In this document: positions 1 to 58,545 of the stretch, one piece after another
Numbering within the stretch: the first letter of the stretch is position 1
How the letters are laid out: each line of letters begins with the position of its first letter
Notes under the pieces: generated by a model
Seen by the model: the letters and a program-made list of their open reading frames with translations, nothing else
Told to the model about the DNA's origin: nothing
Databases searched by the model: none
Assembly (NCBI GenBank): GCA_023247445.1
Contig: JAHFGL010000003.1
Location: 14,128-78,127 of the forward strand
From: Candidatus Omnitrophota bacterium
GTDB taxonomy: Bacteria > Omnitrophota > Gorgyraeia > Zapsychrales > Zapsychraceae
Length of the DNA stretch: 64,000 bases
Reading direction: 5' to 3'
Made by a program: the position numbers and the translations under genes

Positions 1-13
1 TGAAACTGGTGAA

Positions 14-766
14 GTGATGCTGGATCTCTCTCGGGGAAAAATGTTTCGAGACAACGAAATTGCCAAATTTAATAGTATTGGATTAGATGAGAAAAGAGTT
101 TCGGGGATTTTAGCAGGAACAGAGGCATTTGATTTGGACTCGGTTCAAGGGGATGTCTTCGGTTCTTTTGGATTTATCACTGATAATCAAGTTTTTCAGA
201 TGGAAGCGCCAAAAGAAGACGGCGATGATATTGTTGTCCGCGGTTTAGTCATGAGTTTGGAGAATGGAAGAATTAAAGTTGAGATGGTTGAGGGGCGAGG
301 GAATAGAAACAAACTATTGCAGGAAGATGATGAAGATGTTTTGGTCTATTCAGTTGTTGGCGATGGTTTTTACGCCGACGAAGCGCTTGTGACAACGAAA
401 CCAAGTGAAACAATGCAAGAATTTGAAGCTGCTTCTGCACCAGATAAGAAGACGAATTTAGGAGAGAAGAAGTACGGTGGTATCAATCTTAATCCGGCGC
501 TACTTGATCTTCAGATCAAACGCGATGGGCAGGGGATTCCACTACCGATGAATCAACAGCCGATTGAAAATATGCATATTGAAGGATTTTTACCGGTCTT
601 TATTAAACTCACGACGATTACCGATTTGCCGCTGATGCTAGGAATTAATATTCCGGCAGACAAGAAAGATGACGAGAAGACTGATATTAGTTTCAATGTA
701 AGTAGCTTGCCGGTTGAGTATCGTGAAGAGTTTTTGGCGAAAGAGTTGGAGTTGGTGGAAGTGTAG
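14..766 (+). CDS. hypothetical protein; may extend upstream of the window (no in-frame stop before nt 14)
   Basis: 750-nt ORF with no motif I recognise; GTG/ATG start at 14/17, reading frame open to the window edge. Confidence 0.35.
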   Translation: MMLDLSRGKMFRDNEIAKFNSIGLDEKRVSGILAGTEAFDLDSVQGDVFGSFGFITDNQVFQMEAPKEDGDDIVVRGLVMSLENGRIKVEMVEGRGNRNKLLQEDDEDVLVYSVVGDGFYADEALVTTKPSETMQEFEAASAPDKKTNLGEKKYGGINLNPALLDLQIKRDGQGIPLPMNQQPIENMHIEGFLPVFIKLTTITDLPLMLGINIPADKKDDEKTDISFNVSSLPVEYREEFLAKELELVEV

Positions 767-3788: not shown

Positions 3789-4708
3789 TGATCAAATTTT
3801 TCTCGTTTATAACTCGAAAAGTATTTTTTCTCTACATTGTAATCTTTTTTATCGCTTATCGTTTTTTGGATTATCAAAGCGTATTTGAGATTAGTCGGTT
3901 GAAAACCTTGAACCGGCTTGTGCCGCCGTCTTTTAGTGGTCTTGTCCAATATAGTCAGGGCACAGAACAGTTAAAGAAAGAGGACTTAGAAAGTTATTTG
4001 TATTATTTTAATAAAGTCATAGAATATGTTCCCTATGAGTCAGACCTGGCGGATGCGTATGGCATGTTGGGATTTTGTTACTATGCCAAGGGAGAGCCGC
4101 ACAAGGCGATTGATTTTTACAAAAAAGCCATCGGTCTTAATCCGCATTTCTTTTGGTTTCACTATAACCTTGGTCTTATTTATTACAAACAAGGCCGTTA
4201 TAAGGAAGCGATGGATAGTTTGGATCATGCTATTTCTTCAAATCCGGGAGTTATTGTTGAAGTACTGAAAACATCCAGGATTTACCGCCAGGTTATGGAG
4301 TTATCAAAGTATTCTACGCAAAACATGGACATTGGATTAAAGACAGTTTATCGCAATGCTTATTTGCTTTTGATTACGATGCATGATGCTCGTAAAGATT
4401 ATCCAAAGATGTTTGATTATGCCGGTGTTGCTATTGAGGTGAAGCTAGATGATGACGGTTTATTTTATTTTTATCAGGGATTGGCAGCCTATCGTTTGAA
4501 ATCATATAATAATGCGATTTTTGCTCTACAGGAAAGTCTTCGCCGAAACCAAAACAATGCCGACACTTTTTATTATTTTGGTTTATCATTAGATGCTGTT
4601 GGGAAAAAAGATTATGCGCAGGCCTTTTTGAAGCAAGCCGAGGTGAGAAGAAGAGTTACCCAGGGGTATTCGTTTGACCCACAGAAGGTTAATTTAAAAA
4701 TATTTTGA
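3788..4708 (+). CDS. TPR-repeat protein with N-terminal TM anchor; paralog of 6940-7863
   Basis: AYGMLGFCYYAKGEPHKAIDFYKKAIGLNPHFFWFHYNLGLIYYKQGRYKEA is a classic TPR pair; start overlaps the upstream stop (ATGA). Confidence 0.6.
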   Translation: MIKFFSFITRKVFFLYIVIFFIAYRFLDYQSVFEISRLKTLNRLVPPSFSGLVQYSQGTEQLKKEDLESYLYYFNKVIEYVPYESDLADAYGMLGFCYYAKGEPHKAIDFYKKAIGLNPHFFWFHYNLGLIYYKQGRYKEAMDSLDHAISSNPGVIVEVLKTSRIYRQVMELSKYSTQNMDIGLKTVYRNAYLLLITMHDARKDYPKMFDYAGVAIEVKLDDDGLFYFYQGLAAYRLKSYNNAIFALQESLRRNQNNADTFYYFGLSLDAVGKKDYAQAFLKQAEVRRRVTQGYSFDPQKVNLKIF

Positions 4709-18484: not shown

Positions 18485-19990
18485 TTATCCGCTGGTTTTA
18501 TCCATCCACAAAGCATAAATTACCCAGAAAACGACTGTCGGTAAGGCCGCGTATAAAATGCGGTGTAAGGTGACTTGTAGCCACCAATCGATGGGGAAGT
18601 ACGTATTGATGAAGTAGTAAAAAGTAATGACCGCCGTATAAGCGATAAAAAATAGAGGGAAAATAATTATACGGGGATTTAATAAATGCTTATTGGTGCC
18701 GATTAGAATGGCGATCAAAAGAAGCAAAATAACATTGTACCCGTGCGGTAAGCTCATCCATAAACCATTGAGCCCAGGTAAAATAATTGGCCCAAAACTA
18801 AAAAGAATGATACATAGCTTTAATATTATCCAGCGTTGATCGCTTAAGAGTAACCCCGCCACTAAAACCAACCATAAGCCATTCCAATTTGGACTGACAA
18901 TTTCTGCTAAATAAAACGATAAAATATATTCTAATCTAAATAAGCTGACAGGTTTTATTGTTGAAACAAGACCATTAATCATGGTGATGTTTTTTGGTGC
19001 ATAAAATCCATAGAAAATAATGGATGGAATAGAAGCGATGGCGCCGGCAATAAAAAATGTCTTTAAGATTTTCCATTTATCCTTTGCTGAATCTTTCCAG
19101 AAAATATAAGGCACGGCTAAGCATAGAATGATGAGAGCGGCAATCAAGGCTTCACCTTTTGTAAAGCTTAAGAAAGCTAAGAAAGTTCCGGCGAGTAAAG
19201 CGTAAATGGGATGGTGGGTTTCTTTTAATTCGATTAGGCAAAAGAAGCTGGCCAAAAGATAAAAGCTCACAACGATGTCGCAGTATTGACTCAAAGATAA
19301 TTTAATATAAAAAGGCATGCTTAAAATGACGAGCGCGGTAAGAAAAGAAAATATACTTTTTGTTTTGTGCCTGAGGGCGAAAGAAAGTAGTCCGATGGTT
19401 AAAAAGGTAAATAAGAAAGAAGTGAAAATGGATGCTTCGACATCAGGTTGGTTGATGAATGTCCAACCCCAGAGAATGGTGCAGGGCAGAAATAAGGGAT
19501 AGTGTGGGCTTGATCGCCATAAAATAGAAGTAAACATTCGCTTCCAATCATCACCGCTTAAAAATAGAAATTTTGCTTTGAGATTCCATACCGACCACGC
19601 ATCCCATCCTCCGTAGGCATAAAAATGGGCATGGATCCATAATGGTAAAGAGATGATAATTAAAAATAGAAATGGGTAGAGAGCTTTTTGGCTAAAAGTG
19701 TTTGGTGGGAAAATTGGTGATTTATCTTTGTTCCACTTTAGAATTTGGATAATGGTTAGCAAACAAAGAACGATTAAATTTCCACTAATGATAAACAGGC
19801 GATTAAATTGATTAAATAAAATAAAACTAGAGAAAACAATGCTTGAACTTATACCAATGCCTAATCCAGCGGCCAAGAAAAGATGAATTGAAGGTGGTAT
19901 CTTGTGTTCTTTAGACGAAAAAAGGTTGATCGCTAAATATCCAATCGTAAAGGAGATAAAAAATGGTAAGTAGACTAATAAGAGATTCAT
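18485..19990 (-). CDS. polytopic membrane protein; paralog of the N-terminal half of the 998-aa protein
   Basis: 501 aa; shared blocks LAAGLGIGISSSIVF/LALGLGLGFSSFITF and YGGWDAWSVWNLKAKFLF/YGEWDAWAMWNLKTKFLL. Confidence 0.5.
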   Translation of the reverse strand: MNLLLVYLPFFISFTIGYLAINLFSSKEHKIPPSIHLFLAAGLGIGISSSIVFSSFILFNQFNRLFIISGNLIVLCLLTIIQILKWNKDKSPIFPPNTFSQKALYPFLFLIIISLPLWIHAHFYAYGGWDAWSVWNLKAKFLFLSGDDWKRMFTSILWRSSPHYPLFLPCTILWGWTFINQPDVEASIFTSFLFTFLTIGLLSFALRHKTKSIFSFLTALVILSMPFYIKLSLSQYCDIVVSFYLLASFFCLIELKETHHPIYALLAGTFLAFLSFTKGEALIAALIILCLAVPYIFWKDSAKDKWKILKTFFIAGAIASIPSIIFYGFYAPKNITMINGLVSTIKPVSLFRLEYILSFYLAEIVSPNWNGLWLVLVAGLLLSDQRWIILKLCIILFSFGPIILPGLNGLWMSLPHGYNVILLLLIAILIGTNKHLLNPRIIIFPLFFIAYTAVITFYYFINTYFPIDWWLQVTLHRILYAALPTVVFWVIYALWMDKTSG

Positions 19991-20418
19991 GGCTTTCTTC
20001 GGATTAATATCATTCCAAATTTATTTACAAACAAAGGTTCAGCATTTAATTCTTTAATTTTTTCAAGGGCCTGAAGATCGTTTTTACAGACTAAAAGAAT
20101 GAATTCATGATTTGTATTGTTGTAGTCAAGCACCGTGGGCGCCAAAATAAATTGAGCCTGAGAAAATAGTTTGTTTGATTCATCATCATTGGTGTCGCTA
20201 TAATAGCCCAAGAGGTTAATCTTTTTGGTAATGTTTTCTAATCCTAGGAATTTGCCCCCGATGACTTGATGCTTTAGATATTTTTTAAATGTTTTAATGC
20301 GGTTGACCTCGGGGATAAAGACAATAACATTAAAAATAATAATGGCCAGGAAGGAGACGATAAGAATTCTCTGGGGCAAAGATTTTGGCCAATTTATTTT
20401 AAATGAGGGCAACGTCAT
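19987..20418 (-). CDS. small single-TM protein; paralog of 23408-23869
   Basis: 143 aa; shares SQAQFILAPTVLDY / LQAQYFLAPTILEL with the 153-aa protein; 4-nt overlap with the downstream gene. Confidence 0.45.
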   Translation of the reverse strand: MTLPSFKINWPKSLPQRILIVSFLAIIIFNVIVFIPEVNRIKTFKKYLKHQVIGGKFLGLENITKKINLLGYYSDTNDDESNKLFSQAQFILAPTVLDYNNTNHEFILLVCKNDLQALEKIKELNAEPLFVNKFGMILIRRKP

Positions 20419-23411
20419 GGATTTATTTGCGGATTTGGTTTGGTGGCTAGTAGGGTGTTCGCCACATCAAAATTCTTTAAAACTTTTAGATTATATTTTG
20501 CCAAAACAAAGAAATCTTGGAGCCAGTCTTTACTTTCAGGTAAATGGCTCTTCGGGGTTGTTAGATAATAATAATCAAATATTCCATTGGGTCCTTGGCG
20601 GTTAACCTGTTTTAGCCATGTCAGATGATATTTTTCGCGGTAGAAATTAATACTTGGTTCAAAAAGCCAGTTGATCCCAAGGCTCACAGAATTTTCATTT
20701 AAGTTCTTCGTTTTGGGCGCATCTTGCATAATAAATTTTACGGCGTCTTTGGTTGACGCATCGAACTGCCATTCATAAAAGTATTTGATGTTAGCACACC
20801 CAAGAAAGTGGACGAAATAAATTGTTGTTAAAGCATAGAAAAAAGTTTGGGCGGATAATCTAAGGGCTTTCTGAGGAATCGATTGGGCTACTCCTATCAA
20901 GATGACCACAACCATCATAAAAAGAAAAACAAAATAAAGGGCTGTTCTTCCCATAACAAACTTTGTCCCTAAAATTTTCCATTGAAGGAAGATTAAGGAT
21001 GCGCAAAGAAATAGGATTGTTAGGATTCCCATTAAGAATTTATCAGTTGATGAGAACGGTTTTTTCATTATCAGTAGTTGCGCTAGATGGGCTACGCTAA
21101 GAGTTAAAATAGATATGATCAGAAATTTAATGATTAAAATAATATTTAGTCCATCGATAGCTTTTGCGTAAAGGGTGCTATCAATTAAACTTGTTACAGT
21201 GTCCGTCCAGAATCCTTTGTCCCCGCCATAATAAAGTTCATGATAAGTTAATAATTTTTGTAGCGGGACAATGTAAAGAGCCCCCACCACAATTGAACTT
21301 AAGATAATAGAAGGAAAGAGGTTTTTTAGTAGACGTTTAAATATTTCTTTTTCGCGAAATGATTGCAAAAGTTCAAAGCCAAATAGAAACATGATGATAG
21401 CTAGATGAATATGGAGAAAGGCGAGGTTAGATAAAGTAGCCAGAACTAATAACCAAGAGCAAAGGATTAAATTTTTTCTGTAAAGAAGAATGTCATTTGT
21501 CATCAGGATTTTAAAAAAATAATATAAACCCAAAGCCAGAAATCCTAGGCCCAACGCATACCCTCGGGCGCAGGAAAATAAATCTAGCATATAAGGATTG
21601 CACGTCAGCAAAAGAAGTCCTGCGATAAGACTTGGTCCACGTAGAACGATCGAACAAATTTTATAAGCAGCAAACAGAAAAAGCGCATGACCGATCAAAG
21701 CCGGAATTCTTATCGCAAATTCTGACAATCCAAAACAATTGACTGAAATTTTAATAAGTAAACTATTGAGCAGATGGTTGTTTGATGGGTGCGGCTGACT
21801 AAAGGTTAATATTTGAAGAAATGAGGCCGAGGCATGACGCAGATATGTTAACGCTTCATCATGGGTGATCGATATGTTGTAAGCACGGATGAGCGTATAA
21901 ATAAATAATCCCGCCATGATGAGAAAGCAGATCCAGTGAGTAATTCTATTTCTGTCATCCTGAGCGTAGCGAAGGATCTCAGGATTCTTACGTGGCTTGA
22001 GATTTTTTGCCTCGCTCTTGGCAGGCTCAGAATGTTGGGGTGATAACTTTGTTGTTTGGTCTGACCAATAACAAAAAAATGATAGAAAGAGAATGGAGGG
22101 CAAAAGCTGCAGGTAAAGGCGCTCCAGTGACATTGACAGCCACCAATGGATATCGATATTGGTGTTGACCAGATAGATAAAGATTAGGATCGCGATGTAA
22201 GTAATGATGGAGAAGCTAATAATTTTATTTTCTTTATAAAATAATTTTGGAAATTTTAGGATGCCCAACAAAATAACCAATAACCAAATAAAGCTCCATC
22301 GTTTATCAATGATCTCGTTGAATACTGTTTTTTGAATGAGCAGAAATTTTTGGGCCTGTGTAATGTTTAGCTGAACTGCTTTTAAGCTGGGAAGAATATC
22401 TTCGTTGGGCGGCGCCAGGAATACTTTGAAGATGATCGTTGGCAATGCGGCAACGATTAATCCTATCAACATAAAGCGAATCAGGCTCCAACTTGTTTTC
22501 TTGCTTATCGTTTTATCAAATATTAGATAAAGTGTCGTGACGCTTGCCAAGATCCCCGTCATTACCATGCCTTCATTCTTGATGAAGGACAAAAATCCCA
22601 GGAATAGTCCATAAAGAATAGCCACGCGGTGATCTTTTAAATGCATCATGATGATCATTGTGACAAATGCGGCCAAAAGATAATACGCTAAGACAATATC
22701 GGCATATTGGGCCGTCGACCAAAAAATGAAATAAGGATGAGATAAAAGTAATAAGGAGGCAAAAATTCCAGCGGGCTTTAAATTAAGATGCTTTAAGGCC
22801 GCATAGACTAAAAGACAGGCGCTGACCGTAAATAAAAAAGACGTTATAAGCGGAATTGGAAAAAGATTGTTGGCGAAAAAGGAATAAATCCAAACATTAA
22901 CAAATGGTAAGAAAAGTGGGTAGTCGGGATGAGTATGCCAGTTTAGGCCTGATAAAATATCTTGCCAGGGCGTTTGGCTAAAGAGGAGAAACTTGGTTTT
23001 TAAATTCCACATCGCCCAGGCGTCCCATTCGCCGTAGGGATGTTTTTGGATAAGGAATAAGATTATTCCAGACAAGATAAGCCAGCAACAAGCAATTAGA
23101 ATATCTAATGGTTTAAGATTTTTTATCGATTTTTTAAATTGGTCAACGAGTGATGAGGAGCGCAACGACGAGAAATTAAGATAGATTAATAGAATTAAGA
23201 AAAGAAGATTGGCCGTAACAATGGCCAACGCATTAAATTGACGCAGGAATAAGAAAGAAAAGAATGTAATAAATGAGGAGAATCCTAATCCAAGGCCAAG
23301 GGCGAGTAAGAGATGAAGGCTTAATGAAATTGGTTTTGTATTTTTTAATAAAAAAGAAATGGCGAGGAATCCAAGGCAAAAAGAAATAAGGTAGGGGAAA
23401 AAATGGATCAT
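20415..23411 (-). CDS. large polytopic membrane protein: N-terminal module like 18485-19990, an RPE/MITE-encoded linker, and a C-terminal GT-C (PMT/ArnT-like) glycosyltransferase module
   Basis: 998 aa; C-half has ISITHDEALTYLRHA and NNHLLNSLL first-loop motifs typical of GT39/GT83; linker ...HSEPAKSEAKNLKPRKNPEILRYAQDD is encoded by the repeat at 21954-22035. Confidence 0.55.
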   Translation of the reverse strand: MIHFFPYLISFCLGFLAISFLLKNTKPISLSLHLLLALGLGLGFSSFITFFSFLFLRQFNALAIVTANLLFLILLIYLNFSSLRSSSLVDQFKKSIKNLKPLDILIACCWLILSGIILFLIQKHPYGEWDAWAMWNLKTKFLLFSQTPWQDILSGLNWHTHPDYPLFLPFVNVWIYSFFANNLFPIPLITSFLFTVSACLLVYAALKHLNLKPAGIFASLLLLSHPYFIFWSTAQYADIVLAYYLLAAFVTMIIMMHLKDHRVAILYGLFLGFLSFIKNEGMVMTGILASVTTLYLIFDKTISKKTSWSLIRFMLIGLIVAALPTIIFKVFLAPPNEDILPSLKAVQLNITQAQKFLLIQKTVFNEIIDKRWSFIWLLVILLGILKFPKLFYKENKIISFSIITYIAILIFIYLVNTNIDIHWWLSMSLERLYLQLLPSILFLSFFCYWSDQTTKLSPQHSEPAKSEAKNLKPRKNPEILRYAQDDRNRITHWICFLIMAGLFIYTLIRAYNISITHDEALTYLRHASASFLQILTFSQPHPSNNHLLNSLLIKISVNCFGLSEFAIRIPALIGHALFLFAAYKICSIVLRGPSLIAGLLLLTCNPYMLDLFSCARGYALGLGFLALGLYYFFKILMTNDILLYRKNLILCSWLLVLATLSNLAFLHIHLAIIMFLFGFELLQSFREKEIFKRLLKNLFPSIILSSIVVGALYIVPLQKLLTYHELYYGGDKGFWTDTVTSLIDSTLYAKAIDGLNIILIIKFLIISILTLSVAHLAQLLIMKKPFSSTDKFLMGILTILFLCASLIFLQWKILGTKFVMGRTALYFVFLFMMVVVILIGVAQSIPQKALRLSAQTFFYALTTIYFVHFLGCANIKYFYEWQFDASTKDAVKFIMQDAPKTKNLNENSVSLGINWLFEPSINFYREKYHLTWLKQVNRQGPNGIFDYYYLTTPKSHLPESKDWLQDFFVLAKYNLKVLKNFDVANTLLATKPNPQINP
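21954..22035 (-). mobile_element. MITE-like element, copy 2 (short, degenerate), translated in-frame within the 998-aa ORF
   Basis: gtcatcctgagcgtagcgaaggatctcagg...gcaggctcagaatg; minus-strand translation RYAQDD from the TIR. Confidence 0.55.
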
Positions 23412-23869
23412 CGTTTTCTTTGCGTCAAGGCCTGTCCGTAGTCATTGTGGGCCACTGGACGGGCATTAATTTTTCTTAACACCATTGGAAGAATTGTATA
23501 ATCAGGAAAGTCGACAATGTTAAATACTGGATTGGGTCGATTGAGTTCTAAGATCGTTGGCGCCAAGAAATACTGTGCTTGTAAGAAAATCCCATCGTTT
23601 TTTTCTCGCGACATATCTTTGCTGGTTAAATAGCCAACACGTTCTATCCCAGCGAGTTTAGGTTTGAAGGTGAGAAATTGATACCCTGGCTCGTAATAAG
23701 TGCTATAACCACTGGCAACATGGGCCATGACACTAATATAAAGAGAAATAATATTATGGATAAGAAGTCCGCAGGTTAATGCCAAAATGAGGGTGTTTAC
23801 GTGAAACCATTTTTTGGGGAACATAGGCGAAGCTATTTTATTACTGGACCTTTGAGAAAACAAGCTCAA
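23408..23869 (-). CDS. small single-TM protein; paralog of 19987-20418
   Basis: 153 aa; overlaps the start of the 998-aa gene by 4 nt. Confidence 0.45.
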   Translation of the reverse strand: MSLFSQRSSNKIASPMFPKKWFHVNTLILALTCGLLIHNIISLYISVMAHVASGYSTYYEPGYQFLTFKPKLAGIERVGYLTSKDMSREKNDGIFLQAQYFLAPTILELNRPNPVFNIVDFPDYTILPMVLRKINARPVAHNDYGQALTQRKR

Positions 23870-38972: not shown

Positions 38973-39762
38973 AATTACCAGCCTCACTAATCCAAAAGTT
39001 AAAGAACTCGTTAAACTGCGCGAAGCGGCTCAGCGAAAGAAGTCGGGGGTCATTGTCGTTGAAGGATATCGTGAAATTGAGCGTGCTATTGAAGCGAAGG
39101 TGAACTTTAAGGAATTTTATATCTGTAAATATTTTGTTAAAACGTTAGCGCAAAAAGAAACGCTTAAGAAAATCATGGCGCTTAATGTCCCGATTTATGA
39201 GACAAGCAGCGAAGTGTATGAAAAAATTTCATATGGTGACCGCAATGAAGGATTGATGGCGATTGCTCAGCCAAAGTATTCATCATTCTTCGATTTGCCA
39301 TCGAAAGACGATTTGTTTATTCTGGTTATTGAGCAGGTTGAGAAGCCTGGAAATTTGGGCGCGATCCTGCGTACTGCTGATGGCGTGGGCGTTGATGGCA
39401 TCATCGTCTGTGATGCCAAAACGGATATTTATAATCCAAATGTGATTCGTTCAAGTTTGGGAACAATTTTTTCAACTAAAGTGGTTGTTAGTTCTGTTGC
39501 CCCAACTTTTGATTTCTTAAAGTCGAAGGGAGTCAAGATTTGTGCGACGAGTCCTGATGCCGATTTTATTTATTCCAAGGCTGATTTAAAAGCGCCGGTT
39601 GCCATTGTCGTTGGCAGTGAACAGGAGGGCTTAAGTCGATTTTGGTTAAGTAAAGCGGATTTAAAGGTAAGAATTCCAATGCGTGGGAAAGCTGATTCGC
39701 TTAATGTCTCGACATCAACGGCAATTTTGCTTTATGAAGCGCTGAGACAATCGTCATCCTGA
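38962..39762 (+). CDS. TrmH/SpoU family RNA methyltransferase; its stop codon lies in the MITE TIR
   Basis: LGAILRTADGVGVDGII and VVGSEQEGLS SPOUT motifs; last codons caa tcg tca tcc tga are the MITE TIR cgtcatcctga. Confidence 0.7.
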   Translation: MLDKITSLTNPKVKELVKLREAAQRKKSGVIVVEGYREIERAIEAKVNFKEFYICKYFVKTLAQKETLKKIMALNVPIYETSSEVYEKISYGDRNEGLMAIAQPKYSSFFDLPSKDDLFILVIEQVEKPGNLGAILRTADGVGVDGIIVCDAKTDIYNPNVIRSSLGTIFSTKVVVSSVAPTFDFLKSKGVKICATSPDADFIYSKADLKAPVAIVVGSEQEGLSRFWLSKADLKVRIPMRGKADSLNVSTSTAILLYEALRQSSS

Positions 39763-39900
39763 AGGAGCAAAGCGTACTGACTTTTCCATAATTTATATTT
39801 AGATGAAGTCAGTACGTACCAACTTCCTCTAAAATATTAAAGGACAGTTGGTGCGACTGAAGGATCTCTTAAGAGATCCTTCGCTTACGCTCAGGATGAC
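39752..39900 (+). mobile_element. MITE-like element, copy 4 (full length, same orientation as copy 1)
   Basis: cgtcatcctgaaggagcaaagcgtactgacttttccataatttatatttagatgaagtcagtacgtacc...gaaggatctcttaagagatccttcgcttacgctcaggatgacg. Confidence 0.75.
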
Positions 39901-42612: not shown

Positions 42613-42678
42613 GTCATCCTGAGGAACGCAGTGACGAAGGATCTCTTAAGAGATCCTTCGCTGGCGCTCAGGATTACG
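42613..42678 (+). mobile_element. MITE-like element, copy 5 (short form: TIR + Y palindrome + TIR)
   Basis: gtcatcctgaggaacgcagtgacgaaggatctcttaagagatccttcgctggcgctcaggattacg. Confidence 0.65.
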
Positions 42679-43240: not shown

Positions 43241-43553
43241 GATACTTCTTGATGAATGTGTCGACCATCGGTTAGCTAAAACCATCTCCCACCATTCCGT
43301 TAAAACAGTTTTCGATATGGGTTGGTCTGGATTAAAAAATGGCGAATTGCTTACGAAGGCCCAAGAGCGATTTGATATTTTTCTTACAACGGATCGAAAT
43401 TTATCAACTCAGCAAAATCTTGTTCGCTATGATATTGCGATTTTAGTCCTTTGCGTACCTAGTAATACACTTGATGATCTCAAAGAAGTTTTGTCTAAAG
43501 GGCTTAAACAATTACATTTTCTGCAGAAAGGCAAAGCCACTTTCATCAAATGA
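43227..43553 (+). CDS. DUF5615 (PIN-like) protein, putative toxin partner of the DUF433 gene
   Basis: MPGFKILLDECVDHRLAKTI...; 14-nt overlap with the upstream gene. Confidence 0.5.
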   Translation: MPGFKILLDECVDHRLAKTISHHSVKTVFDMGWSGLKNGELLTKAQERFDIFLTTDRNLSTQQNLVRYDIAILVLCVPSNTLDDLKEVLSKGLKQLHFLQKGKATFIK

Positions 43554-43957
43554 AAAGATTAGTTAATTTGTTAATTGTAACGATTTTCTTCAGTGGCTGC
43601 TCGATTCTTGGCCACATGGATGAGCTGTTGACGTTAAAGGCTGTGGGCGATGAGCAGGCAGCAATGGATCGTGAAGTTGGACAGCAAAAGAAGAAGTTTG
43701 CGTTATTAGTTGAAGCCACGAAAAAAGATTCCTTCCTCAAAGATTATTCCACTAAAGACAAGATTAGACGACGATTCGGTGACCCAGTATTTACTCGGCC
43801 AGAAACTAAAGATGGTCAGGAGCTTGAGCTTTGGTTGTATCGTCACGGCACAAAGTTTTCTGAGGGAGATAAGGTTTATTTGTATTTTAACCCAACAGCA
43901 AATCTGATGAGTTGGGAATATGTCGAAGCTCCCAAAAAAGAAGCAGAGAGTAAATAG
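43550..43957 (+). CDS. lipoprotein, unknown function
   Basis: signal plus lipobox FFSGCS. Confidence 0.4.
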   Translation: MKRLVNLLIVTIFFSGCSILGHMDELLTLKAVGDEQAAMDREVGQQKKKFALLVEATKKDSFLKDYSTKDKIRRRFGDPVFTRPETKDGQELELWLYRHGTKFSEGDKVYLYFNPTANLMSWEYVEAPKKEAESK

Positions 43958-44666
43958 TTTCCTCCAAAGTGCTTACCAGAAATTATTTAAACATTTTGGT
44001 CCGCAACACTGGTGGCCTGGCGAAACCCCATTTGAAATAATTGTTGGCGCGATCCTTACCCAAAATACAAATTGGGGCAACGTTGAGAAAGCCATCCGCA
44101 ATTTAAAGCATGAAAAAGTTTTAACCCCGCAGGCGCTCCACCAAATTTCGCAATCCAAATTAGCTGCACTCATTAAACCCGCCGGATATTTCAACGTCAA
44201 AGCCAAACGCCTAAAGAATTTTATCGATTATTTATTTGCCGAATACGATGGAAGTTTAGCGAAGATGAAGAGGGAGAAACTTTCAACCTTACGCCTTAAA
44301 CTTTTAACCATTAACGGCATCGGTCCCGAAACAGCGGACTCGATTTTGTTGTACGCCTTTGCCAAACCGACATTCGTTGTCGATGCGTATACAAAACGTC
44401 TTTTATATCGGCACAATATTATTGAACACGATGCCACGTATCATGACGTTAAAGATTTATTTGAAACTTTTTTTAAGCACGATAGCAAATTTTTTAATGA
44501 ATACCATGCGTTGATTGTTCGTCTGGGAAAAGATTATTGTAAGACAAAAGCTCTCTGCCAGCTCTGTCCGCTGAATGATTTGGAATATTCCCTAATCCGC
44601 AAATGCCCCGACTGCCACCGCGCACTTACTCATAGTTCTCTTTCCCATTCTTGTGCTAAAAAATAG
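43920..44666 (+). CDS. endonuclease III-like HhH-GPD DNA glycosylase with a C-terminal [4Fe-4S] Cys cluster
   Basis: IIVGAILTQNTNWGNVEKA; HhH region LLTINGIGPETADSILLYAF; CKTKALCQLCPL...C. Confidence 0.6.
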   Translation: MSKLPKKKQRVNSFLQSAYQKLFKHFGPQHWWPGETPFEIIVGAILTQNTNWGNVEKAIRNLKHEKVLTPQALHQISQSKLAALIKPAGYFNVKAKRLKNFIDYLFAEYDGSLAKMKREKLSTLRLKLLTINGIGPETADSILLYAFAKPTFVVDAYTKRLLYRHNIIEHDATYHDVKDLFETFFKHDSKFFNEYHALIVRLGKDYCKTKALCQLCPLNDLEYSLIRKCPDCHRALTHSSLSHSCAKK

Positions 44667-44690
44667 TGTGAGTTAGTTATAACTATGTTG

Positions 44691-44888
44691 TCTGTGGTTT
44701 AGGCATATTATTACAGAGCGAGTTCCGCAGCTGATCGACTACAAAAATTTGGTTTAGCCATATGATCAGTCGCTCAAACATGCTCCCTTTGGTCGCAAAC
44801 TCGCTTTGTGATCATATGGCTAAACCATTGCGAAAAGTCGATCTCGCGAGGACTGTTTGAGCGAATAATAATATGCCTAAACCACAGG
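44691..44888. repeat. unique ~200 bp nested palindromic element (MITE-like or structured RNA)
   Basis: outer IR ctgtggtttaggcatattattac / gaataataatatgcctaaaccacag; inner IR tggtttagccatatgatca / tgatcatatggctaaacca; further dyads cgctcaaaca / tgtttgagcg and gatcgac / gtcgatc. Confidence 0.6.
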
Positions 44889-44997
44889 TCATTCTCCGTT
44901 TTTGCCCCTAAGTCACAACAGTAATTTTTTGGCATTTTCCCCAATCACATGGCATACTTTTGCCTATAAATCCTGTCTTTAGTAGTTAATTAATATT

Positions 44998-47900
44998 ATG
45001 TATATTTACAAGAAAAACCAAAACTCATGTGGTAGCCGCCGGCTTATTTCAACCGTCTTACTGATAGCCTTTGGATTGACCTCATTTTTGCCTCCCAATC
45101 TTAGCTGGGCGCAGGTTGTGCCCTTAACAGGACTCAATCTTCCTATTCCGGGAACGGTCATCAATTTAAGTCCCGCCTTTATTCCCGCGCATGTCACCGG
45201 CATTGCCATTCATCCCGACGATCCATTTAAATTCGATTTTATTATTGATACCGGTGATGATCATTTAGAAGGTGAGGCGTTTAAACAGGAATCGATGAAG
45301 CTGATTAAATATTTTATGGCCTCCCTAACGGTGCCGGAGAATCAGATGTGGGTTAATCTTTCGCCATATGAAAAGAATCGTATCATTGCGGATGGACTGG
45401 GGCAGACGGAGATGGGCCGCGACATGCTTGGCCAAGATTATATTTTGAAACAATTAACGGCATCTTTAATGTCACCTGAGAATGAATGGGGACAAAAGTT
45501 TTGGGATCGTGTTCATAAAGAAGTTAAAGAAAAATATGGCAACATTGATATTCCAACGGATACGTTTAACAAAATTTGGATTCTGCCGGATAAGGCGTCG
45601 GTTTATGTTCATGACAATCGCGCGTTTGTTGTTGAGAATCATTTAAAGGTGATGTTGGAGGAAGATTACGTGGCGCTTTCTAATAGTCATCCTGAAGGAG
45701 CGAATGCGACTGAAGGATCTCCGAAGAGATCCTTCGCATCAACTTTCCTTAATGGTTTTGAGAAGAAGTTGGTACGTACTGACTTCCTCCAAATTGAATT
45801 AAGGAAAAGTCAGTACGCTGCGCTCAGGATGACGGAGCCAATCAAAGAAATTTTAAAAGAAATTCTCCTTCCCGAAATCGAGAAGGAAGTTAACAACGGC
45901 AAGAATTTTGCCCAGCTGCGACAGATTTTTTATTCAATGATTTTAGCCACGTGGTATAAACAGAATTTGAAAAAGAGCTTGTTCACCAAAAATTACGCCA
46001 ATCAAAACAAGATTGAAGGAATCGACCTTCAAGATAAAAAAATCAGTGAGAAGATTTACAACCAATATTTAGAAGCCTTCCAAAAAGGTGTCTCCAATTT
46101 AATTAAAGAAGAGTATGATCCGCAAACTCAGGAAGTTATCCCGCGCAAATATTTCTCGGGAGGAGTTCAGGGAGTCGAAGACGCGGCGATCTTGACAAGT
46201 CTGCCTTCGAGTTGGATGGAAGCTCAAATAAATCGCGATCATGCGATGGTCACCGCCGGCATCGATCCTCTCGGCCCTCAAGCTTCCGATGAGGCGATGG
46301 TGACTTATGCCGAAGGAACAGATCAACAATACCTCAAGAGGCTGGATAAGATGTTTCGGGCAATTGCTGGTTCCGCCGATGTGGATGGTTCGGCTTATAA
46401 AGATTTTCAAAGAGGAGTTTCTCAATTAATAACAGATGGCGTGATCACGGGTTTAGTTGCAAGAAGGCAAGTTTGGGATTTTATGAAATCTGTGGCCCAA
46501 GGTGTTGCGTCAGGCGATCGGACAGAATTGCAACAACTGAGATTCCTCTTGAATTCTCCCGAGGAGATTACGTTATCTCATTTTATGAGAATAAGGATTC
46601 GAAAAGAAAAAACAAGTAAACGAATGATTAGAGTTGTTCAAAGAGTCCCTGGAATGCTTGCTCATTCCCAAGCGTTGTTGCAGGACATTGTGGGTAAAAT
46701 AAAACGTAATGAGCCGGTTAAAATATGTTTTGTCTGTAATATGAATGTTCACCGCAGTGCCGTCGCCCATGTCTTAGTAATGGATCAAGCTCAAAAATTA
46801 GGAAGGACCAATGTTGAGATTGTCTCTGGCGGGACATTTGATTCAAATGAACATTTAAATTCTAAATTAAGATCTGGATTCAAGAAAATTTTAGAGGCCA
46901 GGGGTGTTGACAGCGACATCATTAATCGATTTCGTACCAGAGATGTAACTAAAGAAGATTTAGAAGATTCTCAGTTAATTGTGATTGCAGAACCAATGAA
47001 CCTAGAGAGGTTGTCAGAGTTTGAAAATGAGGTTCCAGGGTTGTATGAGAAGATGATATTTTTTACATCGATTAATCCCGTCGTAGATGCCCAGCATCCG
47101 GATCATGTGATGCCAGATCCTTATGATTCAAGTAAGATATCAGCAGAAGGGTTGGTTGATTTAATAGAACAAGAAATAATTCCGCGGTTGTTTCCAACCG
47201 ACCCCGCCCTCCAGCCTTTGGCTGGAGAGGCCTCGGCATCCCGTAAGCGGGATGACCGGGCGATGTTGACTAAAACGGAACAAACTCCTCAAGCTCTGGT
47301 TGAAGATTTAAAACGCGCTGCTGCCGAGGATCCTGGCAATATTGTGGATGTTTTGTATGACCGTGGTTTTAGAAAACCGGATGAACCATTCAACGTGTAT
47401 CTTATGATAAAGAATCATAAAGGTCCGATCTTGGATATTAGAACTGGTGAGGAGTTGCAAAATTGGCCAGCCGAGCAGTTAGTCGGCCGTCAGTGGAGAA
47501 GGGCCGACGTTTATATTAGAAAAGATGACCCAAGAGGTTTGGGAGTTTTGGTGATCGATTCTGATAATATTTTGACCGCGCGCGAAAGTCATCAATTTAG
47601 AGAAAGAAATTGGCGGGATTTGGCTCAAAAAAGAGGACTGATTGTTTATACCGGAGTCAATGCCATCAATCGTGAGTTGATAACCGCGCATCGAATTTTA
47701 AAAGAAGACGGCACGATTGTTGAAAAGGAATATGGTGATTCACCGCCATTCGACTTAAAGGTCACAAAAGAGTCAATCCTGATACGTATTGGCGATGGTG
47801 TTTTTTTTATCGAGTTGGATGAGTCGATGCTGACATACTCTGAAGACCAATGGGATAAAGTCAATCAAACGTACGAGAGCCTTCGCAAATTAGCCCAGAG

Positions 47901-49578
47901 TATTAAAGATGATCTTGATGCAAAGTTAGGGCCTGGATTTGTTGAGGAGTTAACGGGGTTAGTTGATCGATTACCCGAAAATGAAACTCAGGCCAGAGAA
48001 AGGTTAGGCGAAGATGACGCAATGAAATTGTTGGAGGACACCAACCGATTAGCCAATCTTGCTTTTGTGACAATCGATCAAATTTTAACATCATCTCATG
48101 AAAAGATTACATCATTAGGTCTTGATAATATTCTTCAGTCTGATTTAGAAAGTCCAAGGTATCCGATAAAAGAAGGATTTCGCAGCTACGACATAATTCG
48201 TGATTTTACTGAAAAATTGGGCAAGGTTAAAGGGGCTATGGATGGAATGAGTTCTCGGAATCTTAGTCGAGATACAGTTTATGGAGAATTTAATAGTTGT
48301 AAGCTTTTCTCGTCAATGGCTTTAAAAAGAATTGTAGCATTTGTCAACTTATTGGATCATGTTGTTGATCTACAAAGCGAGTCCTTTGAGAAATTTAAAG
48401 AGGAGATAAAATCAAGTACCGTATCTTTTAGAGAATCAAAAAGTTTACCCGAGTATATTTATCGATATTTTTTAATCCCGTATCAAGAAGCTTTGGCAGA
48501 GCGAGAAGCCATTGCTGAACCTATTCCCGATGAGGCGCTGTTGGCTCACCCGGAAGATTTGGTTGGGGGAGAAATAAATTTAAGATATTTGCGACGGATT
48601 CAAAAAATTGTTAATTCCAGCAAGGCTGATACAAAAAAGATCGCCATGTATGTGGGGGCTGGGGCGGATATCAGTGCTGCGCTTCTAGCGATTGATGCGA
48701 CGGACTATATTTTTATCGATCAAATTCCATTTGATACGGATAAACGAAAGGTCAGCGCCAAGACATTGGCTCGCGACATGGAAATTTATTTCCATGACAA
48801 GATGGGCAAAGGATATGGCAATTATTTGGCGATGAAGTCGGTTGGTCGGATTCGGCCATTTTTTATAAAAGAATTAGAATTGTTAGGAATTGATCCTAAG
48901 GATGTTTCAATTAAAAAAGATAAAAATAATCCAAATGTTTTTAGAATTAGTTTTGAGTATAAAGGCCAGAGGAGAACGGTTACCTATGTTGGTAATGCGG
49001 ATGCGACAAGGCCAGCCAAATTCGCCTCGCTTATTAAACGTTTGGGCCGAGCTGATTTTCTAATGATTAGAGCCGGCAATTACAGTGAGCGCAATCCAAA
49101 ACCATTATTAACGCGGACTTTTGTTATGAAACATTTAAAACCATCAGGACATCTTATTGTAGATTCCCTCGATGGGTTGACGGCCAAGGATGGACTACGT
49201 GATTTAGTTGAGCAGAAGCATTTGCGTGATGCCGTTTTAACTAGACTGGAACGCGATGGGGCGGGGTTAGGGTATGGTGATCGTTACGCCCCGCAATCAT
49301 ATATTTATATAAACAATCTCGATGAGGCGCTAGTGACGGATAAAGCAGTGACTAGTGAAGTTCCTGGTGGGATTGATTTTAATCCTGCGAATATGAATTT
49401 CAATTCAAACGGCGATAAGATTCAAATCAACTTACCGATGGCAGATCCCGCGATGCTGGGAGTAGAATCACCCGTCCGTGGTTATCAACCGGTCATTATT
49501 GAAATCACTCCGATAACAAATTTTCCGCTATTGCTCGGACTTAAAGATGAGCACGTGACGCAGATTTCTTATAACTAA
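44998..49578 (+). CDS. giant secreted multidomain protein (1526 aa) with an embedded LMW protein-tyrosine-phosphatase-like domain and an in-frame MITE
   Basis: signal peptide ...FLPPNLSWA-QV; CX5R(S) P-loop VKICFVCNMNVHRSAVAH plus PDPYDS Asp loop at about aa 570-730; possible Rossmann-like MYVGAGADISAALLAIDATDYIFIDQ near the C-terminus. Confidence 0.65.
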   Translation: MYIYKKNQNSCGSRRLISTVLLIAFGLTSFLPPNLSWAQVVPLTGLNLPIPGTVINLSPAFIPAHVTGIAIHPDDPFKFDFIIDTGDDHLEGEAFKQESMKLIKYFMASLTVPENQMWVNLSPYEKNRIIADGLGQTEMGRDMLGQDYILKQLTASLMSPENEWGQKFWDRVHKEVKEKYGNIDIPTDTFNKIWILPDKASVYVHDNRAFVVENHLKVMLEEDYVALSNSHPEGANATEGSPKRSFASTFLNGFEKKLVRTDFLQIELRKSQYAALRMTEPIKEILKEILLPEIEKEVNNGKNFAQLRQIFYSMILATWYKQNLKKSLFTKNYANQNKIEGIDLQDKKISEKIYNQYLEAFQKGVSNLIKEEYDPQTQEVIPRKYFSGGVQGVEDAAILTSLPSSWMEAQINRDHAMVTAGIDPLGPQASDEAMVTYAEGTDQQYLKRLDKMFRAIAGSADVDGSAYKDFQRGVSQLITDGVITGLVARRQVWDFMKSVAQGVASGDRTELQQLRFLLNSPEEITLSHFMRIRIRKEKTSKRMIRVVQRVPGMLAHSQALLQDIVGKIKRNEPVKICFVCNMNVHRSAVAHVLVMDQAQKLGRTNVEIVSGGTFDSNEHLNSKLRSGFKKILEARGVDSDIINRFRTRDVTKEDLEDSQLIVIAEPMNLERLSEFENEVPGLYEKMIFFTSINPVVDAQHPDHVMPDPYDSSKISAEGLVDLIEQEIIPRLFPTDPALQPLAGEASASRKRDDRAMLTKTEQTPQALVEDLKRAAAEDPGNIVDVLYDRGFRKPDEPFNVYLMIKNHKGPILDIRTGEELQNWPAEQLVGRQWRRADVYIRKDDPRGLGVLVIDSDNILTARESHQFRERNWRDLAQKRGLIVYTGVNAINRELITAHRILKEDGTIVEKEYGDSPPFDLKVTKESILIRIGDGVFFIELDESMLTYSEDQWDKVNQTYESLRKLAQSIKDDLDAKLGPGFVEELTGLVDRLPENETQARERLGEDDAMKLLEDTNRLANLAFVTIDQILTSSHEKITSLGLDNILQSDLESPRYPIKEGFRSYDIIRDFTEKLGKVKGAMDGMSSRNLSRDTVYGEFNSCKLFSSMALKRIVAFVNLLDHVVDLQSESFEKFKEEIKSSTVSFRESKSLPEYIYRYFLIPYQEALAEREAIAEPIPDEALLAHPEDLVGGEINLRYLRRIQKIVNSSKADTKKIAMYVGAGADISAALLAIDATDYIFIDQIPFDTDKRKVSAKTLARDMEIYFHDKMGKGYGNYLAMKSVGRIRPFFIKELELLGIDPKDVSIKKDKNNPNVFRISFEYKGQRRTVTYVGNADATRPAKFASLIKRLGRADFLMIRAGNYSERNPKPLLTRTFVMKHLKPSGHLIVDSLDGLTAKDGLRDLVEQKHLRDAVLTRLERDGAGLGYGDRYAPQSYIYINNLDEALVTDKAVTSEVPGGIDFNPANMNFNSNGDKIQINLPMADPAMLGVESPVRGYQPVIIEITPITNFPLLLGLKDEHVTQISYN
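45686..45834 (-). mobile_element. MITE-like element, copy 6, full length and translated in-frame inside the giant ORF
   Basis: gtcatcctgaaggagcgaatgcgactgaaggatctccgaagagatccttcgc...ggtacgtactgacttcctccaaattgaattaaggaaaagtcagtacgctgcgctcaggatgacg encodes SHPEGANATEGSPKRSFASTFLNGFEKKLVRTDFLQIELRKSQYAALRMTE. Confidence 0.7.
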
Positions 49579-49601: not shown

Positions 49602-49681
49602 GTCATCCTGAGGAACGAAGTGACGAAGGATCTCCGATTATTTTAAGTACTTTGAGATTCTTCGCTTCGCTCAGAATGACG
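49602..49681 (+). mobile_element. MITE-like element, copy 7 (short form)
   Basis: gtcatcctgaggaacgaagtgacgaaggatctccgatta...gagattcttcgcttcgctcagaatgacg. Confidence 0.65.
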
Positions 49682-50430: not shown

Positions 50431-51585
50431 TTGGAGAAAATAGCGATGAACAATGTTGGTCTTATCCTTTTGATTGTAGTCCTGGCCATTGGCTTTTTAG
50501 CGGCATTTTTGGTTGTGGTTATCAATTTGCTGAAGAAACAAATTAGAGAAGAGATAAAATTTAATCAAGATCAGTTTCTGCAATTAGCCCAGCAACAATT
50601 CGAGACCCAGCAAAGCAAATCAACCGCAGAATTAGATCAGCGAAAGCAATCAGTTGAGTCTTCTGTTAGCGGATTAAAGGAAGAATTGGAGCGATATCAG
50701 CGATTGATGCGCGAATTTGAACAGGATCGAGCGAAAAAATATGGAAGCTTAGAAAATGAACTAAAGAATGCATCGACCGCCACTGTCAAATTGCAGGAAA
50801 CGACGAATCATTTAAATAATATTTTGGGCAATGTTAAATTACGTGGTCAGTGGGGCGAGCGCATGGCCGAAGATATTATCCAGTATGCAGGACTTCTGGA
50901 AGGCGTTAATTACCGTAAGCAAACCAAACTCGATTTAACCAACACCATTCCCGACTATACTTTTCTTCTGCCCGATAATCATAAGGTCAACATGGACGTC
51001 AAATTTCCTTATGACAATTACATCAAGATGATGAACGCGCCGGAATCTTTAGAGAAAGAGCATTATCAAAAAGAATTTTCTGGCAACGTCACAAGCCGTA
51101 TTCGGGAACTGCGCAATCGTGGTTATATCAATCCGCAGGAAAATACGCTCGACTTTGTTTTATTATTTATCCCTAGTGAACAGGTGTATGCCTTTATTCA
51201 AGAACAGATGCCGGGGATTATGGATGAAGCGTTAAAGCAAAAGGTCGTGTTGTGTTCGCCGTTTACGCTCTATGCGATGCTGACAGTTATCCGTCAGGCC
51301 TATGAAAATTTCCGTTATGAAAAAGATATGAAGAAGATCATCGATCTTATCGACCAATTTGCTAAGCTTTATGAAAATTTTAAGGTGCGGTTTGAGGATA
51401 TTGGAAAATCGCTCGAGAAGATGGAAGCCACATACAATAATATTAAATTAAATAATTTTAAACAACTTGATACAAAGATAAGACAGATTGATGAACACAA
51501 AAAAGGAAATACAATCCCCCTTAATTCATCCGGCGCCATCATCGACGTATCCAAAGAGTCCTTGGACGATCAAGCCGTTGTTTAA
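50431..51585 (+). CDS. rmuC: DNA recombination protein RmuC
   Basis: N-terminal TM plus coiled coil; C-terminal VVLCSPFTLYAMLTVIRQAYENF conserved block. Confidence 0.8.
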   Translation: MEKIAMNNVGLILLIVVLAIGFLAAFLVVVINLLKKQIREEIKFNQDQFLQLAQQQFETQQSKSTAELDQRKQSVESSVSGLKEELERYQRLMREFEQDRAKKYGSLENELKNASTATVKLQETTNHLNNILGNVKLRGQWGERMAEDIIQYAGLLEGVNYRKQTKLDLTNTIPDYTFLLPDNHKVNMDVKFPYDNYIKMMNAPESLEKEHYQKEFSGNVTSRIRELRNRGYINPQENTLDFVLLFIPSEQVYAFIQEQMPGIMDEALKQKVVLCSPFTLYAMLTVIRQAYENFRYEKDMKKIIDLIDQFAKLYENFKVRFEDIGKSLEKMEATYNNIKLNNFKQLDTKIRQIDEHKKGNTIPLNSSGAIIDVSKESLDDQAVV

Positions 51586-58474: not shown

Positions 58475-58545
58475 TGCCCGGTGGTGTAATGGTAACACAG
58501 CAGAATTTGGATCTGCTTTTCCAGGTTCGAATCCTGGCTGGGCAG
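58475..58545 (+). tRNA. tRNA-Gln (anticodon UUG), CCA not encoded
   Basis: cloverleaf by hand: acceptor TGCCCGG/CTGGGCA (U1-A72, as in bacterial tRNA-Gln), D-stem GTGT/ACAC, anticodon stem GCAGA/TCTGC with loop ATTTGGA, T-arm CCAGG-TTCGAAT-CCTGG, discriminator G. Confidence 0.8.

Follow-up and report, generated by a model that had tools for sequence, protein, structure and literature searches.

Sequence comparison places the intergenic, 196-bp nested palindrome at 44692–44887 of the window (the whole 64,000-nucleotide stretch of contig JAHFGL010000003.1 from a Candidatus Omnitrophota bacterium) in a rare family of short DNA insertions without coding capacity, known from two Omnitrophota genomes, where they occupy unrelated loci. 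Its architecture is real and far beyond chance. As to its nature, we consider that there is about an even chance that it is a low-copy, non-autonomous palindromic insertion of the MITE/foldback-like kind, kept as a two-layer composite. Nothing curated or published was found to match the family, which is similar in kind to known bacterial palindromic repeats.

The two outer arms, A at 44692–44713 (CTGTGGTTTAGGCATATTATTA) and A′ at 44866–44887 (TAATAATATGCCTAAACCACAG), which like all arms and helix strands below are given on the + strand, pair at 22 of 22 positions. The initial annotation was right that an outer inverted repeat is present, and wrong in giving it 23 bp, since position 23 is a C opposite an A. 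The inner arms B (44750–44768, TGGTTTAGCCATATGATCA) and B′ (44809–44827, TGATCATATGGCTAAACCA) pair at 19 of 19 positions, in agreement with the 19-bp inner repeat proposed earlier. A further helix, P2, joins 44733–44740 (GATCGACT) to 44836–44843 (AGTCGATC); it contains the gatcgac/gtcgatc dyad that had already been noticed and extends it to 8/8. The second dyad reported, cgctcaaaca/tgtttgagcg, also exists, as part of a 31-nt pairing (87%) of 44750–44780 with 44854–44884, and has a mirror counterpart in the complementarity of 44695–44724 with 44798–44827 (30 nt, 87%). Both of these cross the nested pairs, which bears out the earlier statement that some pairings cross. All four arms are copies of a single core, TGGTTTAGSCATATKAT, in the order forward, forward, reverse, reverse. 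The core was not found elsewhere in the window at 0–1 mismatch; at two mismatches or fewer there were six matches in the window against 1.0 expected, a number reached by none of 100 shuffles. Outer and inner arms are spaced by 55 and 57 bp. The RNA fold of the 211-nt stretch had an energy of -90.7 kcal/mol, shuffles giving -49.1 +/- 4.1 (z = -10.2), and its DNA fold reached -53.6 (z = -10.0).

The element starts 26 nt past the stop codon of an HhH-GPD (EndoIII-like) gene and ends 110 bp before the ATG of the giant ORF at 44998, the distance that had been given at the outset. Only ORFs of 26–56 aa overlap it, none with a database relative. A possible third, outermost layer was also seen, in which 44654–44676 (TGCTAAAAAATAGTGTGAGTTAG) pairs imperfectly with 44908–44934 (CTAAGTCACAACAGTAATTTTTTGGCA). 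This repeat is a 27-column gapped local alignment with p of about 0.01 against shuffles in the window only; it would extend the palindromic region to 281 bp, and its left arm overlaps the HhH-GPD stop codon. No such inverted repeat is shared by the second family member described below.

The internal order of the element follows from a single design. Each unit opens with an arm of 19–22 bp; the L box (GAGCGAGTTCCRCAGC) comes next, a variable hairpin separates it from the R box (GAGGAC.TGTYTGAGCGA), and the complementary arm closes the unit. The element is one such asymmetric unit used twice, the second copy being placed in reverse at the hairpin apex of the first. The L type follows the outer left arm, where it occupies 44714–44731 on the + strand (CAGAGCGAGTTCCGCAGC), and recurs in reverse complement before the inner right arm at 44791–44808 (- strand; the + strand reads GGTCGCAAACTCGCTTTG). 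The R type, which read from outside is TTCGCTCAAACAGTCCTCGC, follows the inner left arm at 44769–44786 (- strand; the + strand reads GTCGCTCAAACATGCTCC) and stands in reverse complement before the outer right arm at 44844–44865 (outer R box, + strand, TCGCGAGGACTGTTTGAGCGAA). When the eight arm-adjacent 22-nt segments of both genomes were compared, they fell into two clean classes, L-type and R-type, with alignment scores of 6–14 and 10–18, respectively, within the classes and 3–6 across them (shuffle mean 4.6). Each layer has one L and one R segment; in both genomes it is the inner layer that is turned around. The motif GAGCGA stands next to both arms of a unit in direct, not inverted, orientation. 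The crossing complementarities arise because one asymmetric unit is used twice, the second time reversed.

The second member was discovered by a degenerate arm-pattern scan of genome contigs, one genome per species. It lies in Omnitrophica WOR_2 bacterium RIFCSPHIGHO2_02_FULL_48_11 (MHGP01000013), at 2177–2413 of the locus called L064 here. A scan of metagenome contigs returned this same locus three more times (L220, L271 and L295) among the matches listed; the other pattern matches listed in the two scans were mostly chance single matches, and no strain variants of the L064 locus are on record. The L064 copy has the two-layer design, the L and R assignment and the polarity of the window copy, with an outer-to-inner arm spacing of ~58 bp. 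The two are 60% identical over 196 aligned columns, with nhmmer E-values of 1e-49 on the same strand and 7e-13 on the opposite strand. Scores from a covariance model were higher on the modelled strand than on the other, at 223.6 against 75 bits for the window copy and 275.1 against 82.3 bits for the L064 copy. The homology ends at the outer arms, beyond which the flanks are not alignable. The element has a G+C content of 43.4% and 43.5% in the two members, that of the hosts being 38.7% and 46–48%. Conservation is uneven: the inner arms are identical at 17–18 of 19 positions (17 of 19 for B) and the sequence of the outer L box is also conserved, whereas the outer arms are the least conserved part, identical at only 9 of 21 positions and yet perfectly complementary within each genome (22/22 and 21/21).

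That the element is an insertion is best seen at L064, where pepF (Peptidase_M3) and rpmB start on either side of it and run in opposite directions. The synteny RsfS-ArgS-RecJ-rpmB-pepF is kept in Omnitrophota relatives, and the rpmB-pepF spacer measures 514 bp in L064, with the element. It is 173 bp in L306, 66 bp in L307, 103 bp in L308, 72 bp in L431 and L433, and 108 bp in the P0126 contig, which shares its ENA sample of origin with the window organism; pepF in these loci is 84, 67, 68, 62 and 65% identical, respectively, to that of L064. The short spacers of these five related loci identify the element as an insertion in L064. By alignment, the rpmB promoter is conserved up to ~430 bp of extra DNA in L064, a segment larger than the element, which sits at its center.

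Other repeats were noted at this locus. An exact 60-bp direct repeat, consisting of the last 60 bp of rpmB, occurs at L064 2776–2835 and, 1.7 kb downstream, at 4505–4564. Between its copies lies an AAA_14/DUF4143 ATPase gene, and the arrangement, which adjoins the nested palindrome, looks like a small island integrated at the rpmB 3′ end. At ~2436–2549 a 15-nt direct repeat (GGAAAATAGRGATTG) surrounds an 84-bp segment with an 8-bp inverted repeat.

The family is rare in the DNA that was covered. The 64-kb window and the L064 contig pieces each contain a single copy, and no further copy was found in ~170 kb of other Omnitrophota DNA (~230 kb in all); at least two independent members are present among the matches listed in the genome and metagenome scans. 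Re-search of all listed pattern loci by nhmmer gave no further member, nor did the covariance model on 200 of the ~240 genome and metagenome pattern loci. Viral contigs scanned with three patterns (arm, R box and L box) contained no family member, and BLAST against plasmids and phages gave no match. Six-frame peptides of both copies, compared with the protein database for miscalled ORFs in other copies, had no hits, and nothing relevant was found in the literature on the arm sequences or on "inverted repeat" in Omnitrophota. A short-read contig of the window organism (L120, window 43305–45711) spans the nested palindrome intact, which weakly suggests that this is not a high-copy identical repeat.

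The initial annotation had considered a second MITE family. The homologue at an unrelated locus and the five empty orthologous sites speak for this; multi-copy status and target duplication, both defining marks of a MITE, were not found. At the outer arms of the window copy, inspection for target duplications showed a 2-bp match only (GT/GT), as did the inner arms (TT/TT and TA/TA); there was none at the L064 outer arms and nowhere one of 3 bp or more. In common with MITE and foldback elements such as Neisseria Correia, enterobacterial ERIC/IRU and Rickettsia RPE, the element is ~200 bp long (well within the usual limit of <~600 bp), non-coding and intergenic, has long terminal inverted repeats and a long hairpin fold, is present or absent at orthologous loci, and occurs in unrelated contexts across genomes. 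It differs from them in having one copy per genome sample instead of several dispersed ones, no clear target duplication and no known parent IS. Its terminal arms are the least conserved part, and two reversed copies of the unit are nested as a conserved composite. Since it carries no gene, a MITE/foldback-like element of this kind must be, or have been, moved in trans, and arm plus box would presumably be what a transposase or recombinase recognises. All ORFs scanned in the window are housekeeping or of unknown function, with no transposase or recombinase among them, and no autonomous IS with these arms occurred among the pattern matches listed. An IS30-like transposase element in L307 was considered as a parent and rejected because its ends are unrelated to the arms. 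Several other candidates were also rejected by eye against the consensus sequences: a dif/Xer site (the arms are not 11-6-11), a parS site (the halves are not adjacent) and a LexA box. A retron or DGR was dismissed for want of a reverse transcriptase.

How the two copies have diverged bears on whether DNA or RNA is the form that matters. When the two sequences are aligned, each of the 58 predicted pairs is a standard pair in both copies, with changes on both sides at 19 of them: 12 of the 21 in the outer stem, three in P2, one in the inner stem and three in the box region. With slid partners at most one double change was obtained, and no shuffle came close. This covariation, together with the very stable fold, the conserved unpaired boxes between stems that are free to change sequence, and a start just past a stop codon, would suit a structured RNA, either a ~200-nt rod-like small RNA (6S-like) or a stabilising or terminating hairpin in the HhH-GPD 3′-UTR. 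The sole wobble pairs, which lie in the weak helix between the boxes (helix 3) on the + strand, and the slightly better fold of the inner units on their "sense" strand point the same way. However, the long stems, ~40 bp per copy, contain no G-U pair and no bulge despite 13 double substitutions. The two strands of the whole element fold about equally well (-88.1 and -89.8 kcal/mol in the window, -101.1 and -106.7 in L064) with no consistent preference, and strand asymmetry of folding was abandoned as a test for RNA because it was inconsistent. Since the stems are purely Watson-Crick and the strands fold equally, symmetry at the DNA level fits better than a selected RNA.

Other observations also count against an RNA, which we regard as quite unlikely. 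At the gathering threshold, Rfam models matched only a tRNA (58475–58545) in the whole window, and at E-values up to 10 the element region gave only a chance SNORD112 match of 15 bits. Neither copy has a conserved promoter or intrinsic terminator at the element, and the L064 copy, between divergent promoter-like sites, would be transcribed by neither neighbour. Perfect duplexes of 19–22 bp, such as the arms of a transcript would form, would be RNase III substrates. The element is absent at syntenic sites in relatives and from the other Omnitrophota DNA, and the reversed unit-in-unit symmetry has no RNA rationale. With 6S and other rod-like small RNAs it shares the length of ~200 nt and the succession of closing stem, conserved internal bubble and apical stem; it departs from them in its unbulged stems, its lack of strand preference and its non-conserved locus, and the reversed internal copy would be left unexplained. 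A hammerhead core, CUGAUCGA, was also rejected by eye, as it is not conserved in L064.

The initial annotation also raised the possibility of a cis-regulatory RNA or a protein-binding palindrome controlling the giant gene, and as a dedicated regulator of that gene the element is not supported. The neighbours in the window are the HhH-GPD gene on one side and, on the other, the giant ORF (1526 aa, 44998–49578), whose translated start suggests a signal-peptide-like N-terminus. The homologue in L064 stands by pepF and rpmB with no giant gene near it, and no protein is common to the two neighbourhoods. The polarity is reversed as well, the end proximal to the nearest downstream gene being R in the window and L in L064. 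Control from within a leader is further opposed by a sigma-70-like site, TTGGCA-18-CATACT, at 44929–44958, which lies downstream of the element, between it and the giant-gene ATG, and is the only promoter-like site on the + strand; the L064 copy is flanked on each side by a promoter-like site, the two being divergent. Upstream of the closest giant-gene homologues (two regions, L434/L435 and L436) the element is absent. Its effect at the present site is probably passive only. Transcripts of the HhH-GPD gene probably include it at their 3′ end, where the stable hairpin could act as a passive 3′-end barrier or as an insulator before the giant gene's own promoter.

A DNA site bound by protein, with the arms as operators or recombination sites of a multi-site operator or of an invertible (phase-variation) cassette before the giant gene, is in our view unlikely. 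It would account for the four copies of the 17-nt core, spaced alike in both genomes, and for the location of the element 24–42 bp upstream of the neighbouring gene's sigma-70-like promoter in each of them; the element is nevertheless missing from the same promoter region in the five related loci. Perfect 19–22-bp inverted repeats around 40–152 bp resemble invertons, the phase-variable promoters of surface-protein genes, and here too they stand directly upstream of a gene for a large, putatively secreted protein. Against this, the window encodes no recombinase or invertase, there is no convincing promoter inside the element (the promoter-like site being outside it), independent assemblies of each organism have one orientation throughout, and the homologue is not by a comparable gene, a giant secreted protein on the one hand and pepF/rpmB on the other being functionally unrelated. 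Moreover, with 12 of 21 positions different from the core, the outer arms of L064 would not bind the same protein.

One observation at a giant-gene homologue speaks for this reading. In the 254-bp spacer upstream of the closest homologue (P0004), at L434 3753–3953 (also in L435), there are three copies of GTTTGGGTAT in inverted and direct arrangement. One of them, TGGTTTGGGTATATAAT, is identical to the window arm at 14 of 17 positions, with a post-hoc p of about 0.01–0.02; the spacer is without boxes and scores 11.4 bits with the covariance model. As a weak hint, this arm-like motif is either chance or a motif that recurs upstream of giant genes.

The giant ORF itself belongs to an Omnitrophota-wide family of >4000 proteins, whose common parts are an N-terminal domain (~420 aa) and a C-terminal segment (~75 aa). 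The inserts between these shared ends are highly varied and in homologues include glycolytic and other enzyme domains. The ORF that runs off the start of the window (2–766) carries the C-terminal segment of this family. Upstream of the giant ORF, TGGCATACTTTTGCC at 44951–44965 overlaps the -10 region of the sigma-70-like site. It resembles the sigma-54 -24/-12 element, and was rejected by eye as a sigma-54 promoter since its GG-GC spacing is one base short. An RmuC-family gene lies at 50431–51585, 5.5 kb downstream of the palindrome. This family has been linked to limiting inversions at short inverted repeats, and its proximity here is probably coincidence.

Perfect outer arms that have nonetheless diverged between the members are unusual for ends recognised by a transposase and hint at selection for pairing itself. 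Divergent perfect arms around conserved unpaired boxes leave room for readings other than a MITE/foldback-like insertion, whether structure-recognised, protein-binding or invertible, or RNA. The element could be a mobile or recombination site recognised as a hairpin or cruciform, like attC, REP/RAYT or IS200/IS605 ends, a reading that we hold to be highly improbable. Stems that covary freely while staying paired, next to unpaired boxes that keep their sequence, are what it would lead one to expect, and the direct GAGCGA gives the strand polarity typical of single-strand-specific systems. In such a scheme, one "sense" unit would be available on either DNA strand because of the reversed nesting. 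HUH and tyrosine-recombinase elements insert without target duplication, in agreement with the lack of one of 3 bp or more here. The window, however, holds no HUH transposase, RAYT or integron integrase, and the contrast between sequence and structure rests on one comparison of two members.

Two of these systems also differ from the element in detail. With integron attC sites it shares an imperfect palindrome of 60–140+ bp, conservation of structure over sequence, a conserved asymmetric unpaired region and a variable terminal hairpin. The attC core order is 5′-RYYYAAC...GTTRRRY-3′, whereas the element arms have the opposite order, 5′-GTTTAGC...GCTAAAC-3′, and perfect stems with no extrahelical bases, integrase or cassette array. 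REP, BIME and REPIN sequences, which are mobilised by RAYT, consist of 20–40-nt units with a conserved GTAG head, a high copy number and an associated RAYT gene. The element resembles them in being pieced together from palindromic units of alternating orientation, which jointly form a larger hairpin and conserve pairing over sequence. It differs from them in lacking the GTAG head and a RAYT (Y1 HUH) gene in the window, in having units of ~80–120 bp, three to five times longer, and in occurring as a single copy, not highly repeated in the DNA examined.

It is very unlikely that the element represents a new kind of structure-recognised DNA site, moved as a single-stranded hairpin or cruciform by an Omnitrophota enzyme. 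By analogy, its logic may be comparable to that of attC/IntI or REP/RAYT while the site is unrelated to them. In a variant of this proposal the arm core TGGTTTRGSYATA would be a recurrent protein-binding motif upstream of giant genes.

Returning to a MITE/foldback-like insertion, the same genome contains a second modular family of nested palindromic repeats, and the presence of such a second family implies that elements of this type are active in the lineage. Copies of this GTCATCCTGAG...CTCAGGATGAC family were noted in the window at 1447–1585, 39753–39900, 42613–42677, 45686–45833, 49602–49680 and 21954. Their modules are a terminal repeat of 11 bp and a hairpin (GAAGGATCTC..GAGATCCTTC), to which the long forms add a second palindromic module. 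The two families are alike in being palindromic and modular, with nested modules and an interior in either orientation. They have no sequence similarity, and the GTCATCCTGAG family has at least five copies in 64 kb and the 11-bp terminal repeat. That the nested palindrome is unrelated to this family had been stated before and holds, as neither nhmmer nor the covariance model gave another match in the window. No GTCATCCTGAG copy occurs in the L064 region or in the related loci that were examined.

The copy at 45686–45833 is 148 bp long and lies inside the giant ORF, where it keeps the frame and encodes about aa 230–279 (SHPEGANATEGSPKRSFASTFLNGFEKKLVRTDFLQIELRKSQYAALRMT). When aligned with the homologue P0004, this stretch coincides with a gapped linker that is not conserved, within the conserved N-terminal domain, and it looks like an in-frame repeat insertion of the RPE type. 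Its interior is inverted as compared with the copy at 39753, so that this genome shows more than one case of palindromic modules being nested or inverted. The short-read contig L120 ends 26 nt into this copy (window 45711), a break pattern that fits the GTCATCCTGAG in-ORF copy being multi-copy and the nested palindrome not. Elsewhere in the window, four consecutive ORFs without a Pfam match (501, 143, 998 and 153 aa) were found on the minus strand at 18485–23869, in a region that is otherwise housekeeping.

For annotation, the element should not be labelled a riboswitch or a regulator of the giant gene. Very little has been described of the mobile DNA of Omnitrophota, an uncultured phylum. If the reading as a MITE/foldback-like insertion is true, the element would be a further small selfish palindromic family, distinguished mainly by its conserved design of a unit inside a reversed unit and by its occurrence in this phylum, and would mark intergenic spacers that took up foreign DNA. 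Should more copies prove to keep pairing rather than sequence, this would suggest a mobilisation system, so far undescribed, that recognises hairpins.
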